UHGV virus genome: UHGV-0093931 | Length of the DNA: 40,921 nt | DNA from: a virus | Direction: 5' to 3' (one strand) | Shown here: positions 18,019-22,789 of the stretch, one piece after another | How positions within the stretch are numbered: position 1 is the stretch's first letter | How the letters are laid out: each line of letters opens with the position of its first letter | Program-made: the position numbers and the translations under genes | The notes under the pieces: generated by a model | Seen by the model: the letters and a program-made list of their open reading frames with translations, nothing else | Told to the model about the DNA's origin: nothing | Databases searched by the model: none

Positions 18019-19476
18019 ATGCAGGTCACTATCGATGGTGTTCCATACGCGCCTGTCTGCAATTCGGTGTCACGCATAGGAATAGCAATCACAACGCATA
18101 ATCGCCCTGACGTATTGAAGCGGACACTGGCGCAGCATCATCAATTTTTACCGTCCGGCGCGCTCGTGGTTGTCATAGATGATGGTTCAAAACCTGCCGC
18201 AGTCGTTCCCGACGGCGTGCAGCTGCTTCGCAATGAAACATCCCTCGGCATTGTGGCCTCGAAAAACCGAAGCCTCGAAGCGCTGGTGGACGCCGGATGT
18301 GAGCATCTCTTCCTGTGGGATGATGACGCATGGCCGGTTGCCGATAACTGGCACCTGCCTTACATCGAATCACCTGAGTCACACCTGGCTTACCAGTTTC
18401 TCGATCTGGCTGGTCCACGAAAGATAAACGATATGACCGTCCTGCACCAGGATGATAAGCATATCGCTTACACCGGGCAGCGCGGTGTGATGCTGTACTA
18501 CCACCGCAGCGCCATTGAGAAGGTTGGCGGATTCGATCCGGTATACGGTCGAGGCATGTATGAGCATCCTGATTTGGCGCTTCGGATTTATAACGCTGGC
18601 TTAACGTCCTGGGCGTTTGCTGATGTGGTTGGCTCTGAAAAGCTGATTCACTCAATGGATGAATACGAAGAGGGCGCGCGCAGCATACCGAGGCCTGAAC
18701 GTGAAGCGCTCTATAAAAAGAACGCTGTAATTTACGGGCAGCGCCGGGATTCAGGATATACAGGCTATGCCGAATATCGATCTCAGCGCGACGTGGTAAT
18801 CACAACGTTGCTTACCAGCCAGCCAGACCCGCAGCGCGGTACGAAAATGGCGGCCGTATCAGACATGCTGACCAGGTGGGCTGCCTCGCTTCGGAATTGT
18901 GGCCGTATTGCGCTGGTGGATGAGCTGCAGACGGCATCGGCAGACGTTGAGTTGTATCGCGTCCCTGACGTGAAGATGAATGTCTACTTCCGGCGCTGGC
19001 TGCATATCTGGCAGCACCTGCGCGATCACCCTGAATACCGGTTCGTCTGGTGTACCGATGGTACCGATGTCGAAATGCTCCGCGCACCGTGGGAAGAAAT
19101 GCAGCCCGGGAATGTTTACGTCGGTTCTGAACCGAAGATCTACGCCGACACCTGGGCGAAACAGAATCATCCTGAGCGTATCTATCAGGAATTCATTGAA
19201 GCGCACCGCGGCGATGTGATGCTTAATGCTGGTCTTCTGGGAGGCACCCGCGCTGATGTGATGGCGTTCGCTCATGGCATCATCCGTCTTTACTACCGGA
19301 TCGAGAGTTATCGTTTCTGGAAGAAAGAACAGGCTGGCGCAGCGGTGGGTGACATGCTGGCGTTCGGTATCGTTGCGCAGTCATTCGCTGACAGGTTGGT
19401 CACCGGCCCTCTGGTACATACCGTTTTCAAAACTGATGGTATCGGTAAGGAGGCAGCATGGTGGAAACACAAGTGA
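18019..19476 (+). CDS. two-domain glycosyltransferase (GT2-like GT-A domain plus a second nucleotide-sugar-transferase-like domain)
   Basis: 485 aa; N-terminus ...IGIAITTHNRPDVLKRTL...VVVIDDGS...LFLWDDDAW... is a GT-A/GT2 signature with DxD; C-terminal half has ...VWCTDGTDVEM...NAGLLGG... resembling another GT-A-type domain; no predicted TM segments. Confidence 0.7.
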   Translation: MQVTIDGVPYAPVCNSVSRIGIAITTHNRPDVLKRTLAQHHQFLPSGALVVVIDDGSKPAAVVPDGVQLLRNETSLGIVASKNRSLEALVDAGCEHLFLWDDDAWPVADNWHLPYIESPESHLAYQFLDLAGPRKINDMTVLHQDDKHIAYTGQRGVMLYYHRSAIEKVGGFDPVYGRGMYEHPDLALRIYNAGLTSWAFADVVGSEKLIHSMDEYEEGARSIPRPEREALYKKNAVIYGQRRDSGYTGYAEYRSQRDVVITTLLTSQPDPQRGTKMAAVSDMLTRWAASLRNCGRIALVDELQTASADVELYRVPDVKMNVYFRRWLHIWQHLRDHPEYRFVWCTDGTDVEMLRAPWEEMQPGNVYVGSEPKIYADTWAKQNHPERIYQEFIEAHRGDVMLNAGLLGGTRADVMAFAHGIIRLYYRIESYRFWKKEQAGAAVGDMLAFGIVAQSFADRLVTGPLVHTVFKTDGIGKEAAWWKHK

Positions 19477-20048
19477 AGTTTGTTGTGGTTGGCCATCATT
19501 CCCGTTACGCCTCAGCTGCATTGCTGGCTGGTGAACTTGGCGCGCACCTTCTTATCGATGAAGGGAATCACGGGGCTAACTGGAATCACCGGCGCGCTAT
19601 CGAATGGGCTGCTGAGCAGCCTTGCCGGGTGGTGGTACTGGAAGACGACGCGCTGCCTGTACGTGGATTCAGAGACAAGCTTACGGGCTGGCTGGCTCGT
19701 TTCCCTGGCGACATGCTTAGTTTTTATCTGGGCACCGGGCGGCCACCGCAATACCAAATGCAGATAGCTGAACGCCTGATTAATGCGGATAAGGTGAGGT
19801 CTGACTTCATTATGCTGCAACGCCTGATACATGGCGTGTGCTACAGCATACCGCCTCAAAGCATCAGCCGTGTGCTGTCTCAATGGGACGGCAGTAAGCC
19901 TGCCGATTATGCCGTGGGCGATGCTTATGGTGGCGTTGTCGTCTATCCCTGTTGGTCGCTGGTGGACCACGCAGACGGCGAACCGGTTGAGCGTCACCCT
20001 GACTCAGCACCACGAACAGAACGCCGCCGGGCGTGGAGGTTAGCCTGA
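19458..20048 (+). CDS. glycosyltransferase family 25-like protein
   Basis: 196 aa; ...FVVVGHHSRYAS...LIDEGNHG...RVVVLEDDALP... matches the GT25 (LPS/LOS glycosyltransferase) motif order as recalled; strong AAGGAGG RBS; start overlaps the upstream gene. Confidence 0.55.
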   Translation: MVETQVKFVVVGHHSRYASAALLAGELGAHLLIDEGNHGANWNHRRAIEWAAEQPCRVVVLEDDALPVRGFRDKLTGWLARFPGDMLSFYLGTGRPPQYQMQIAERLINADKVRSDFIMLQRLIHGVCYSIPPQSISRVLSQWDGSKPADYAVGDAYGGVVVYPCWSLVDHADGEPVERHPDSAPRTERRRAWRLA

Positions 20049-20398
20049 TGCCTGCGTTAATACCGAGAGCATGCCGCAAGCGTGGCTGCTCTGGCACAAC
20101 CACTGAACGCTCAGGCTATTGTCCCAAGCACCTTAACGAAGGCTGGCAGCAGCATCAGCGAGGACAGAGCAGGCATCAGCGAGGTTATGGCAGCAAGTGG
20201 GACAGGCTGCGGCCAATCGTTCTCGACAGGGATAAACACCTTTGTCAGGAATGCCTGCGAAATGGAAGGTATACACCCGCTGAGACGGTGGACCACATCA
20301 CCGCCAAAGCAAATGGGGGGACCGATGACCTTTCCAACCTCGAAAGCCTCTGCAAGCCTTGCCACAGGGCGAAGACAGCAGTTGAAAGACTCAAATGA
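20048..20398 (+). CDS. HNH endonuclease (terminase-associated)
   Basis: Cys-rich ...CRKRGC...CPKH... and ...CQEC...DHI...CKPCH... HNH motif; directly upstream of the terminase small subunit. Confidence 0.85.
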   Translation: MPALIPRACRKRGCSGTTTERSGYCPKHLNEGWQQHQRGQSRHQRGYGSKWDRLRPIVLDRDKHLCQECLRNGRYTPAETVDHITAKANGGTDDLSNLESLCKPCHRAKTAVERLK

Positions 20399-20419
20399 CA
20401 TCAATTCTCATTTGAATCG

Positions 20420-20510
20420 ACCGAGGGGGAGGGCGGGTTGAAAGTTCAGGAACGACGCGCCAAAGGACCGCCGCCTAACCTCTTTTCACATCGCCGCAGG
20501 TTAGAAAACT
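20420..20510. other. candidate cos / terminase recognition region
   Basis: GC-rich tracts (GAGGGGGAGGGCGGG; GGACCGCCGCCTAACC, whose reverse complement resembles the lambda cohesive-end core GGGCGGCG) and inverted repeat CTAACC...GGTTAG between HNH and terS. Confidence 0.3.
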
Positions 20511-20555
20511 TTTTTATGGGGTCCCCCACTCGATGATTAATAGGAGTTTTCGATT

Positions 20556-21053
20556 ATGTCTGGACCACCGAAAACCCCGACCCATCTACGTTTGGTGAGG
20601 GGTAACCCATCAAAACGCCCGATTAATGAAAACGAACCAAAGCCAGCTGCAGGGGTACCCCCAACGCCGAAGCATTTCGACAAGCAGGGAAAATACTGGT
20701 TCAAGCGTATGGCTGAAGAGCTCGATGCGCTTGGCGTCATGTCGCAGCTGGACGCGAGAGCGCTTGAGATTTTGGTTGAGGTTTACACCGAGTACCGGCA
20801 TCACTGCGATACTCTGGAGAGAGAAGGCTATACCTACGCCGTATATAGCGACGAAGAACCAGACGAAGGCAAAGAGCGAGAGATTCGCATGATCAAGGCT
20901 CACCCGGCGGCCATCATGAAAGCTGATGCCTGGAAACGTCTTCGCGCCATGCTCGGAGAGTTCGGTATGACGCCAGCCAGCCGCTCTAAAGTGAATGCAA
21001 AAGGTCCTGATGCGGTTGACCCGCTGACCGAGTTTATGAAAGCGAGGGATTAA
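20556..21053 (+). CDS. terminase small subunit (P27-family type)
   Basis: 165-aa ORF with TAGGAG RBS, immediately upstream of and overlapping the large terminase. Confidence 0.8.
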   Translation: MSGPPKTPTHLRLVRGNPSKRPINENEPKPAAGVPPTPKHFDKQGKYWFKRMAEELDALGVMSQLDARALEILVEVYTEYRHHCDTLEREGYTYAVYSDEEPDEGKEREIRMIKAHPAAIMKADAWKRLRAMLGEFGMTPASRSKVNAKGPDAVDPLTEFMKARD

Positions 21054-22789
21054 TGGCTAAGGTTGCAGAAGGCATCCGCTACGCCGAGAGGGTGGTGGCG
21101 GGGGAAATTATTGCCTGTGAGTATGTGCGCCTTGCCTGTCAGCGTTTTCTTGACGATCTGGCCCACGGCGAAGAGCGCGGTATTTTCTTCAGTGAGCCGC
21201 GCGCGCAGCACATTCTGAATTTCTATAATTTTGTCCCTCACGTCAAAGGCGCGCTGGCAGGCCAGCCTATTGAGCTGATGGACTGGCATGTTTTCATCCT
21301 GATTAATATTTTTGGTTTTGTTATCCCGCTGGTTAACGAAGATACGGGGGAAAACGTCCTGCGTAACGACGGCAGCGGTCGACCGGTGATGGTTCGGCGT
21401 TTCCGTACAGCAGATGTTGAGGTGGCCCGTAAAAATGCCAAATCAACGCTTTGCTCCGGCGTAGGGCTGTATATGGCTGGTGCCGACGGCGAGGGAGGGG
21501 CGGAGGTTTATTCCGCTGCTACAACCCGTGACCAGGCGAGAATTGTTTTTGAAGACGCGAAAAATATGGTCAAGAAGGCGAAAGCCACTCTTGGGCGGAT
21601 CTTCGAATTCAACAAGCTCGCTATCTACCAGGAGCAAACGGCCTCCAAATTCGAGCCATTATCATCAGATGCAAACAACCTCGACGGCCTGAACATCCAC
21701 TGCGCCATCGTTGACGAGCTGCATGCTCATAAAACGCGTGACGTCTGGGACGTTCTGGAGACGGCCACCGGCGCGCGCCTGCAATCTCTGCTTTTCGGTA
21801 TCACCACCGCTGGTTTCAACAAAGAAGGTATCTGTTACGAATTGCGTGATTACGCCATCAAGGTCCTGCGCGGCCTGGTTAAAGACGATACGTTTTTTGC
21901 CATCATCTACACCTTAGATGAAGGTGACGATCCATTTGATGAAAAAGTCTGGCAGAAGGCCAATCCGGGGCTGGGTATCTGTAAGCGCTGGGATGACTTG
22001 CGGCGTCTGGCAAAAAAAGCGAAAGAGCAGGTTTCGGCCAGGATTAACTTTTTCACCAAGCACATGAATATCTGGGTTACGGCAGAGTCTGCCTGGATGG
22101 ACATGATGAAATGGGAGAAATGCGAGTTTATCGCCCCGCAGCACGAACTTAAAACCTATCCCTCCTGGGTGGGCGTTGACCTTTCAAACAAAATTGATAT
22201 CTGTGCGGCCGCTAAAGTCTGGCGCGCGCCAGGTGGCCACGTTCACGCGGATTTTAAATTCTGGCTTCCGGAAGGACGCCTTGAGAAATGTTCACGCCAG
22301 ATGGCAGAGCTCTATCGTAAGTGGGCTGAGCTGGACAAGCTGATCCTTACCGACGGGGATGTAATCGACCATGCTCAGATTAAGGAAGAGCTGCAGGTGT
22401 GGGTTGCTGGCGAGAATCTGAAAGAAATTGGCTTCGATCCCTGGAGTGCTACGCAGTTCAGCCTTGCGCTGGCAGAAGAAGGGTTGCCACTGGTGGAGGT
22501 GCCGCAGACGGTTCGCAATTTCTCTGAGGCGATGAAAGAGGTCGAAGCACTGGTATATGGTGGCCGCTTCCATCACAGCGATCACCCGGTAATGAACTGG
22601 ATGATGTCCAACGTAACCGTCAAACCTGACAGGAACGAGAATATTTTCCCGAACAAGTCCACACCAGAGGCCAAGATTGATGGCCCGGCGGCATTGTTCA
22701 CAGCAATGAGCCGCGTTCTGGTTAACGGTGGCAACGACCAGCAGGATCTTTCCGGATTCTTCAATAATCCCATCATGGTAGGTTTCTGA
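21053..22789 (+). CDS. terminase large subunit
   Basis: 578 aa; Walker A-like ...LCSGVGLYMAGADGEG... context and C-terminal nuclease-type acidic motifs; followed by the portal gene. Confidence 0.9.
   Translation: MAKVAEGIRYAERVVAGEIIACEYVRLACQRFLDDLAHGEERGIFFSEPRAQHILNFYNFVPHVKGALAGQPIELMDWHVFILINIFGFVIPLVNEDTGENVLRNDGSGRPVMVRRFRTADVEVARKNAKSTLCSGVGLYMAGADGEGGAEVYSAATTRDQARIVFEDAKNMVKKAKATLGRIFEFNKLAIYQEQTASKFEPLSSDANNLDGLNIHCAIVDELHAHKTRDVWDVLETATGARLQSLLFGITTAGFNKEGICYELRDYAIKVLRGLVKDDTFFAIIYTLDEGDDPFDEKVWQKANPGLGICKRWDDLRRLAKKAKEQVSARINFFTKHMNIWVTAESAWMDMMKWEKCEFIAPQHELKTYPSWVGVDLSNKIDICAAAKVWRAPGGHVHADFKFWLPEGRLEKCSRQMAELYRKWAELDKLILTDGDVIDHAQIKEELQVWVAGENLKEIGFDPWSATQFSLALAEEGLPLVEVPQTVRNFSEAMKEVEALVYGGRFHHSDHPVMNWMMSNVTVKPDRNENIFPNKSTPEAKIDGPAALFTAMSRVLVNGGNDQQDLSGFFNNPIMVGF

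Follow-up and report, generated by a model that had tools for sequence, protein, structure and literature searches.

The gap of 157 nt (20399-20555) between the HNH endonuclease gene and the small terminase gene, terS, of a lambdoid prophage very probably holds a cos site, as judged from sequence comparison. The window, by which we mean the whole stretch of 40,921 nucleotides herein analysed, carries this prophage in the integrated order, with early genes, lysis genes, HNH, the gap, and then the head and tail genes. [quoted passage not shown] Support comes from the families and the order of the genes, the homology of the left arm and of the cleavage core (cosN) to HK97 DNA, the coincidence with the ends of related phage records, and the conservation of the non-coding DNA. 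The exact nick positions, predicted by homology, are proposed with somewhat lower confidence than the presence of cos in the gap. The HNH-assisted 3'-cos arrangement of HK97 is already established, and a site of this kind is ordinary and expected for this gene order. A sequence-only reading of the same DNA had placed a candidate cos site in this gap, with an HNH gene directly upstream of terS in an HK97-like phage. The location is upheld by gene content, by DNA homology to HK97 and by the ends of three phage records; the neighbourhood of the two genes was confirmed by their Pfam matches (Table 1); and the affiliation with HK97 agrees well with the TerL, HNH, portal, protease and capsid proteins described below. 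That reading was, however, right in its bases and partly wrong in its reasons, since two of its three sequence clues turned out to be weak.

Genes flanking the putative cos site

The HNH protein is a BLASTP homologue of gp74 of HK97 (E 4e-10) and matches the HNH endonuclease of PDB entry 5H0M (E 2e-16). TerS passes the gathering score of PF05119 with 84.6 bits against a cut-off of 24.7, and its homologues with 66-97% identity are named 'phage terminase small subunit P27 family' in their sources. The large terminase, TerL, is 28% identical to gp2 of HK97 over 465 residues (E 1e-38) and carries the same two Pfam domains, while its sole sequence match in PDB is HK97 TerL itself (6Z6D, E 9e-35). 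The three genes following terL encode a portal protein (PF04860), a ClpP-type protease (PF00574) and an HK97-fold capsid protein (PF05065). All the genes of this set (HNH, terS, terL, portal, protease and capsid) are full-length open frames with strong family matches, and the structural half of the prophage is 87-90% identical, over the matched 51-79%, to the isolated, plaque-forming phages CharmingMan, Fraca and mEp235. The AGGAG of the ribosome-binding region is located 9 nt before the terS ATG at 20556.

Table 1. Features of the predicted cos region and of its flanking genes (positions in the window; mean majority fraction in the conservation set where determined; slashes within the core mark predicted nicks)
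Feature	Position	Strand	Mean majority fraction	Basis or remark
HNH endonuclease gene	20048-20398	+		116 codons; Pfam PF01844, E 1.4e-15
Conserved A/T-rich block AAATGACATCAATTCTCAT	20393-20411	+		Overlaps HNH stop codon
G-tract GGGGGAGGGCGGG	20425-20437	+		42-54 nt left of predicted top-strand nick
G-tract segment	20424-20438		0.83	Compared with following spacer
Spacer			0.62	
cosN block	20463-20480		0.93	
Predicted cosN core GGAC/CGCCGCCTAA/CC	20465-20480	+		HK97 identity, record ends of relatives, conservation
Predicted 10-nt 3' cohesive end CGCCGCCTAA	20469-20478	+		HK97 overhang type; 10 nt missing from AH07
Predicted cos right arm, cosB-like, CCTCTTTTCACATCGCCGCAGGTTAGAAAACTTTTTTATGGGGTCCCCCA	20479-20528	+		Predicted binding region of P27-family TerS; conservation
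Right arm, to about +48	20479-20526		0.90	
Right-arm sub-element GGTTAG	20499-20504			
Right-arm sub-element A4-C-T6	20505-20515			
Right-arm sub-element, palindrome TGGGGTCCCCCA	20517-20528			
Ribosome-binding region of terS	20541-20555	+	0.93	TAGGAG plus spacer
Small terminase gene terS, P27 family	20556-21053	+		165 codons; PF05119 Terminase_4, E 6.9e-24
terS codon positions 1 / 2 / 3			0.87 / 0.91 / 0.66	
Large terminase gene terL, HK97 type	21053-22789	+		Pfam PF03354 (TerL_ATPase) and PF20441 (TerL_nuclease)

Two further genes lie between the lysis cassette and HNH (18019-20048), a 485-codon open reading frame with a weak match to glycosyltransferase family 2 (E 5.8e-4, below the Pfam cut-off) and an overlapping 196-codon frame for which no match was found in Pfam; their position suggests accessory prophage cargo. 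A near match to the segment 20300-20700 was detected in only 16 of 5,426 complete E. coli genomes (best 92.8%), and the RefSeq annotation under the match in these 16 genomes consists only of the two flanking genes. In an Enterobacter sp. chromosome (locus L012) the gap is identical, and the TerS is 97% identical. Enterobacter or a near relative is thus a more probable origin of the window than E. coli.

Left-arm and cosN homology with HK97

The cohesive ends of HK97 are 10-nt 3' overhangs, its cos is cut between record positions -1 and +1, and the cleavage is stimulated by the HNH protein gp74 (PMC9410871, PMC11331095). The HK97 record NC_002167 ends with ...CAAATGAGAATGAATCGCATCAGGGCAGGGGGGGGGGATCAAATCTTCAAAACCTTTGCCCCAAATGACCGCCGCCAAA and starts with GTTTGAATTTAACGCTAACCCGATTTTTTT, so that the record break reads ...ATGACCGCCGCCAAA/GTTTG (here and below the slash marks the break), the last bases being CGCCGCCAAA. 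When the 85 nt left of 20478 were aligned to the HK97 right end, the score was 28, as compared with 11 for the best shuffle (z = 13.4), and the corresponding left arms of 17 relatives from other genera aligned to HK97 with z values of 9-20. The sequences shared with the HK97 right end include the A/T-rich block (AAATGAnAnCnATTnTCAT), the G-tract and an identical core, GACCGCCGCC. No second copy of the cosN 16-mer (20465-20480) occurs in the window. Rightward of the predicted nick, no similarity to the left end of HK97 was detected (z about -0.6), in line with the unrelated TerS.

As to TerS itself, no relationship to HK97 gp1 was found by BLASTP (E = 1), by hhalign (probability 0.2%) or by a PDB sequence search with TerS, and gp1 gave no hit to Terminase_4. 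The AlphaFold model of TerS is modest (pLDDT 63); the top probability among the PDB hits of Foldseek goes to HK97 TerS (8POP_B, 6Z6E), with 0.80 for 8POP_B at a non-significant E of 0.69 and a target-normalised TM of 0.58. Since TerS is not detectably related to gp1 and the fold match is non-significant, the part of TerS in the mechanism proposed below is drawn by analogy only.

Altogether, the prophage and HK97 are alike in the order HNH-cos-terS-terL, in the homologous TerL and HNH proteins and in the CGCCGCC with which the overhang, predicted for the prophage, starts, but they differ in the last three or four overhang bases (CTAA here, CAAA in HK97), in the distance between the nick and the terS start (77 nt here, 49 nt in HK97) and in the family of TerS (PF05119 here, no Pfam hit for gp1).

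Ends of related phage records

The records of two phages with TerS of the P27 family end within the homologous DNA. For Proteus phage vB_PvuS_Pm34 (KY420199; TerS 67% identical to that of the window), the record break in terS orientation is ...CACCTAGGAC/CGCCCCCTTACCTCTTTTCACATCACCGCAGGTTAG, 10 nt left of the HK97 break; it falls at GGAC/CGCC (...CCTAGGAC/CGCCCCCTTACCTCTTTTCAC), a position homologous to 20468/20469. Pantoea phage AH07 (MZ501270; TerS 41% identical) has a record that ends with ...CGACCTCCTGAC and starts with CCTTTTTATGCACAACCGCGAAATGAAAAGTTTTTTT, giving the joint ...CTCCTGAC/CCTTTTTATGCAC from which 10 nt are missing; the HK97 end and the AH07 start are both homologous to 20478/20479. 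In a prophage-derived relative of AH07, ST13-OXA48phi12.2, the sequence runs ...AAATGAC CGCCGCCAGT CCTTTTTGTGCAC... (GAC CGCCGCCAGT CCTTTTT), and by alignment the joined ends of AH07 lack exactly these 10 nt, CGCCGCCAGT. The ends of AH07 were called by PAUSE and PhageTerm from reads of a TruSeq library (PMC8567787), and 3' overhangs are removed by end repair according to the PhageTerm paper (PMC5557969); the loss of 10 nt is expected, because end repair trims 3' overhangs.

Since the records of HK97, Pm34 and AH07 mark both nicks, we predict the bottom-strand nick at 20468/20469, the top-strand nick at 20478/20479 and the overhang CGCCGCCTAA, all carried over either from phages whose TerS is 41-67% identical to that of the window or from HK97, whose TerS is unrelated. 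Pm34 and AH07 resemble the window in having homologous cosN and right arm, and their record ends correspond to the two predicted nicks. Their overhangs differ from that of the window, being CGCCCCCTTA in Pm34 and, as deduced by alignment, about CGCCGCCAGT in the AH07 type; furthermore, the AH07-type right arm has GCGAAATGAAAAG where the window has GCAGGTTAGAAAAC and lacks the GGGG/CCCC palindrome. No annotated cos feature was found in the retrieved stretches of the Pm34 and AH07 records. Among more distant phages with P27-family TerS, phi105 of Bacillus, Gordonia phages, BtiUFT6.51-F and NIIg3.2, terS is the first gene of the linear records.

Conservation of the cos region

For the analysis of conservation, 20 sequences were picked by TerS protein, not by DNA, from Enterobacter, Serratia, Klebsiella, Pantoea, Citrobacter, Xenorhabdus, Proteus and other genera. 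The non-coding DNA from cosN to about +50 is conserved on a par with the second codon positions of terS (Table 1), and the cos sequence of the window departs from the family consensus at hardly any position. All of the 18 protein-selected loci across Enterobacterales carry the site, and in these relatives bases 1-6 of the predicted overhang are nearly fixed while bases 7-10 are variable.

A scan of IMG/VR with a 22-mer of the right arm yielded at least 120 loci, for which the conservation of the right arm is given by construction because they were selected with this 22-mer; only the protein-selected set is unbiased. All 111 loci with enough sequence to be assessed have an HNH homologue upstream of the site, its end lying within 700 nt of the site in 103 and at 718-816 nt in the remaining 8, and terS starts no more than 150 nt downstream of the site in 105 of 106. 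No IMG/VR contig starts at the predicted +1, most of the matches being prophages within longer contigs. In the eight loci with the distant HNH gene (L051, L062, L083, L087, L094, L111, L121 and L137; the usual distance to the nick is about 80 nt), the 718-816 nt before the nick indicate an extra gene between HNH and cos, as in Fraca. Separately, the terS of Serratia sp. L9 (NZ_CP192591, locus L027 1201-1660) is apparently frameshifted after about 35 codons with the upstream cos intact, which may represent either a decaying prophage or a sequencing error.

Left and right arms

The A/T-rich block of the left arm, of which the counterpart at the HK97 right end is CAAATGAGAATGAATCGCAT, is kept in 22 relatives, including those with a different upstream gene, and a part of it is included in an imperfect inverted repeat (20388-20398 and 20408-20418). 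Within the cos left arm it may serve for protein binding or for DNA bending. The G-tract has counterparts in HK97 (the G run preceding ATCAAATC), mEp235, Pm34 and AH07, and is better conserved than the spacer that follows it (Table 1). We describe it as a conserved element of the left arm that is placed much as a cosQ would be; the positions of the G-tract and the A/T block together suggest a cosQ-like or bending element, and a cosQ-like role of the G-tract is presumptive. The G-tract was also compared by eye with an inverted copy of cosN, and this reading was rejected, the complementarity being imperfect and missing in HK97.

The right arm is the putative binding region of the P27-family TerS. 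The TerS site of HK97, mapped to +15 to +29, has an A-tract in it (PMC11331095). The favoured candidate for a TerS site here is the near-invariant block CCGCAGGTTAGAAAACTTTTTT at +16 to +37, which contains an A/T tract, as the HK97 site does; the block carries AAAACTTTTTT at +27 to +37 and is without sequence similarity to the +15 to +29 site of HK97.

Next to this block, the palindrome keeps its two-fold symmetry while its letters change among the relatives, with the variants TGGGGTACCCCA, TGGGGAACCCCA, TGGGGTTACCCCA, TTGGGTGACCCAA and CCGGGATCCCCGG, and is missing from the AH07-type sites. A dimeric protein may be considered as its binder.

The inverted repeat and the likeness to lambda

Beyond the gene order, the sequence-only reading had relied on GC-rich tracts, on the resemblance of one of them in reverse complement to the lambda cohesive end, and on a CTAACC/GGTTAG inverted repeat. 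The GC-rich tracts are present (GGGGGAGGGCGGG at 20425-20437 and GGACCGCCGCC at 20465-20475), with a 60-nt GC peak of 0.65 at 20420-20479. The likeness to lambda did not hold: the reverse complement of 20465-20476, AGGCGGCGGTCC, has only 8 of 12 positions in common with the lambda end GGGCGGCGACCT, and this is at the level of chance because better matches to the lambda 12-mer (3 mismatches or fewer) occur at 34 sites in the window against 36 expected from shuffles. The motif CGCCGCC alone occurs 17 times in the window. Lambda cosN was accordingly discarded as a reference, the informative match being that to HK97.

In general organization the two systems have some features in common, namely a G/C-rich cleavage core with GGCGGCG on one strand, and a general layout in which an upstream element is followed by the nicking site and then, beside terS, by an arm for the binding of TerS (cosQ-cosN-cosB in lambda; the arm here is predicted). 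They differ in the ends, a 12-nt 5' overhang, GGGCGGCGACCT, in lambda versus a predicted 10-nt 3' overhang here, and in the terminase, which is Nu1/gpA in lambda, whereas TerL of the window is not of the gpA type in Pfam and its TerS belongs to Terminase_4. Lambda has no HNH partner (PMC9410871).

The inverted repeat exists and extends to 7 bp (CTAACCT at 20475-20481 and AGGTTAG at 20498-20504, spaced by 16 nt), but as a pair it is not preserved: it is perfect in only 10 of the 18 protein-selected relatives, with a variable left arm and the right arm AGGTTAG kept in 16 of 18, and no compensated variant was found among these relatives. Inverted pairs of at least 6 nt number 7 in 191 nt, so that short repeats are common here. 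Single-stranded DNA folding of the region was no better than that of shuffles (z = -1.1). With 10 of 18 perfect pairs, no compensation and no stable fold, a functional hairpin or symmetric site at CTAACCT/AGGTTAG was rejected. A scan of the gap against Rfam gave nothing above noise, the best being a C. elegans snoRNA at E 0.29, and no promoter-like or terminator-like site was found in the gap.

Proposed mechanism and alternative readings

By analogy with HK97, the site could be used as follows. During lytic growth, the P27-family TerS would bind to the conserved right arm, probably at GGTTAG plus the A/T-tract (about +16 to +37), and would place the HK97-type TerL on cosN. TerL and the adjacent HNH protein would then nick the two strands 10 nt apart at the predicted positions, the bottom strand at 20468/20469 and the top strand at 20478/20479, to give virion DNA with 10-nt 3' cohesive ends, in which CGCCGCCTAA would be the top strand of the right end. 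The end starting at C20479, on the terS side, would enter the capsid first, and packaging would stop at the next cos in the concatemer. The TerS site, the direction of packaging, the protein responsible for each of the nicks and the continued packaging by this prophage are what we infer in drawing this scheme.

A prophage that is defective elsewhere might retain an intact-looking cos, unused by its own genome and yet usable by a helper with a matching terminase. The detailed look covered the packaging and structural genes only, and the frameshifted terS of Serratia sp. L9 implies that decay occurs in this family. We regard this state as unlikely in view of the full-length genes from HNH through capsid with their strong family matches, the identity of the structural half to that of the isolated, plaque-forming phages, and a cos sequence that equals the family consensus nearly everywhere.

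That the gap could be only the expression leader of terS, providing the ribosome-binding site and late-operon control while the packaging site is located elsewhere, finds some favour in the obvious and highly conserved ribosome-binding region at 20541-20555, and in the palindrome TGGGGTCCCCCA, which with its symmetry kept under sequence change could be a regulator site. Such a leader is hard to reconcile with three linear phage records that end within the conserved block at homologous positions, or with the homology between the left arm and the DNA at the physical right end of HK97; moreover, neither promoter-like nor terminator-like sites were found in the gap, its Rfam hits stayed within noise and its fold is not unusual, and a leader would not account for conservation that extends upstream of the stop codon of HNH. 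We consider it very improbable. Equally little credit can be given to headful (pac) packaging, with the conserved sequence serving as a pac recognition site and no fixed cohesive ends, for although small terminases of many phages read pac sites near or inside terS and the ends of this element were placed by homology rather than by mapping, TerL is of the HK97 type, HNH and terS are paired in the way described for HK97, relatives have defined ends here, and the 10-nt gap of AH07 fits a 3' cos phage.

Combination of an HK97-like left arm with a different right arm

With the gap taken as a cos site, what is modestly new is an HK97-like left arm combined with a different right arm and paired with an unrelated TerS family. 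The left arm is common to HK97 in spite of a TerL that is only 28% identical, and this would imply a conserved reader, either the TerL nuclease with HNH or a host factor. We put forward, as a tentative idea, that cos may be modular, the left arm being read by such a conserved factor and the right arm forming a cassette with the P27-family TerS, of which the N-terminal arm would read it. TerS residues 1-11 (20556-20588; compared with loci L026, L029 and L153) co-vary with the type of right arm, being M(S/P)GPPKTPTHL with GGTTAG and MAGR(P/R)P(T/K)PTHL with GAAATG, and to the GAAATG group belongs a TerS from Xenorhabdus which otherwise shares 62% identity with that of the window. As it covers about two independent lineages, this apparent covariation between GGTTAG or GAAATG and the TerS N-terminal arm is only a lead. 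If the modular reading were true, these sites would amount to a series of swaps made by nature, from which one could learn how DNA is read by ring-shaped small terminases.

No new biological principle is involved, and the use of the site lies mainly in annotation and in the correction of public records. With the position of cos predicted at base level, this prophage and its relatives in Enterobacterales can be drawn in virion orientation, and a prediction can be made of the DNA mobilisable by this terminase, such as cos plasmids and satellites carrying the site. The position also explains, and lets one correct, the mis-joined or arbitrarily opened records of CharmingMan, Fraca, PSTRCR_117lys and mEp235.

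Junction anomalies in public records

Besides the records that end at the predicted nicks, three other phage records (CharmingMan, Fraca and PSTRCR_117lys) show assembly anomalies exactly at the cos junction. In CharmingMan (PP925830; locus L001 489-512, corresponding to window 20455-20482), the sequence reads GCGCC-TTAGGCGGCGGTCCTTT-GGCGC as compared with GCGCC-AAAGGACCGCCGCCTAA-CCTC in the window: the outermost 17-22 nt of the predicted right end stand in reverse complement, and the left end is short of 4 nt, probably owing to an artefact of assembly at the physical ends. In Fraca (LR597645; L002 1-124 and the end of L003), the first 124 nt duplicate its own internal terL, corresponding to about 22230-22348 of the window, with the point of fusion, CCT/CTTTTCAC, lying no more than 3 nt from where the left end is predicted; the record terminates inside the cos right arm, and its two ends overlap. 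PSTRCR_117lys (MW358929; L008/L009), deposited as circular, has ...CTCTCGCC joined straight to GGTTAGAAAAC, lacking about 39 nt including cosN that are present in the related IMG/VR loci L038, L113 and L151. In mEp235 (NC_019708 37509-37518; L004 1110-1119), the predicted overhang CGCCGCCTAG is located 77 nt before the record end, the reference record having been opened at the terS start codon and not at cos.
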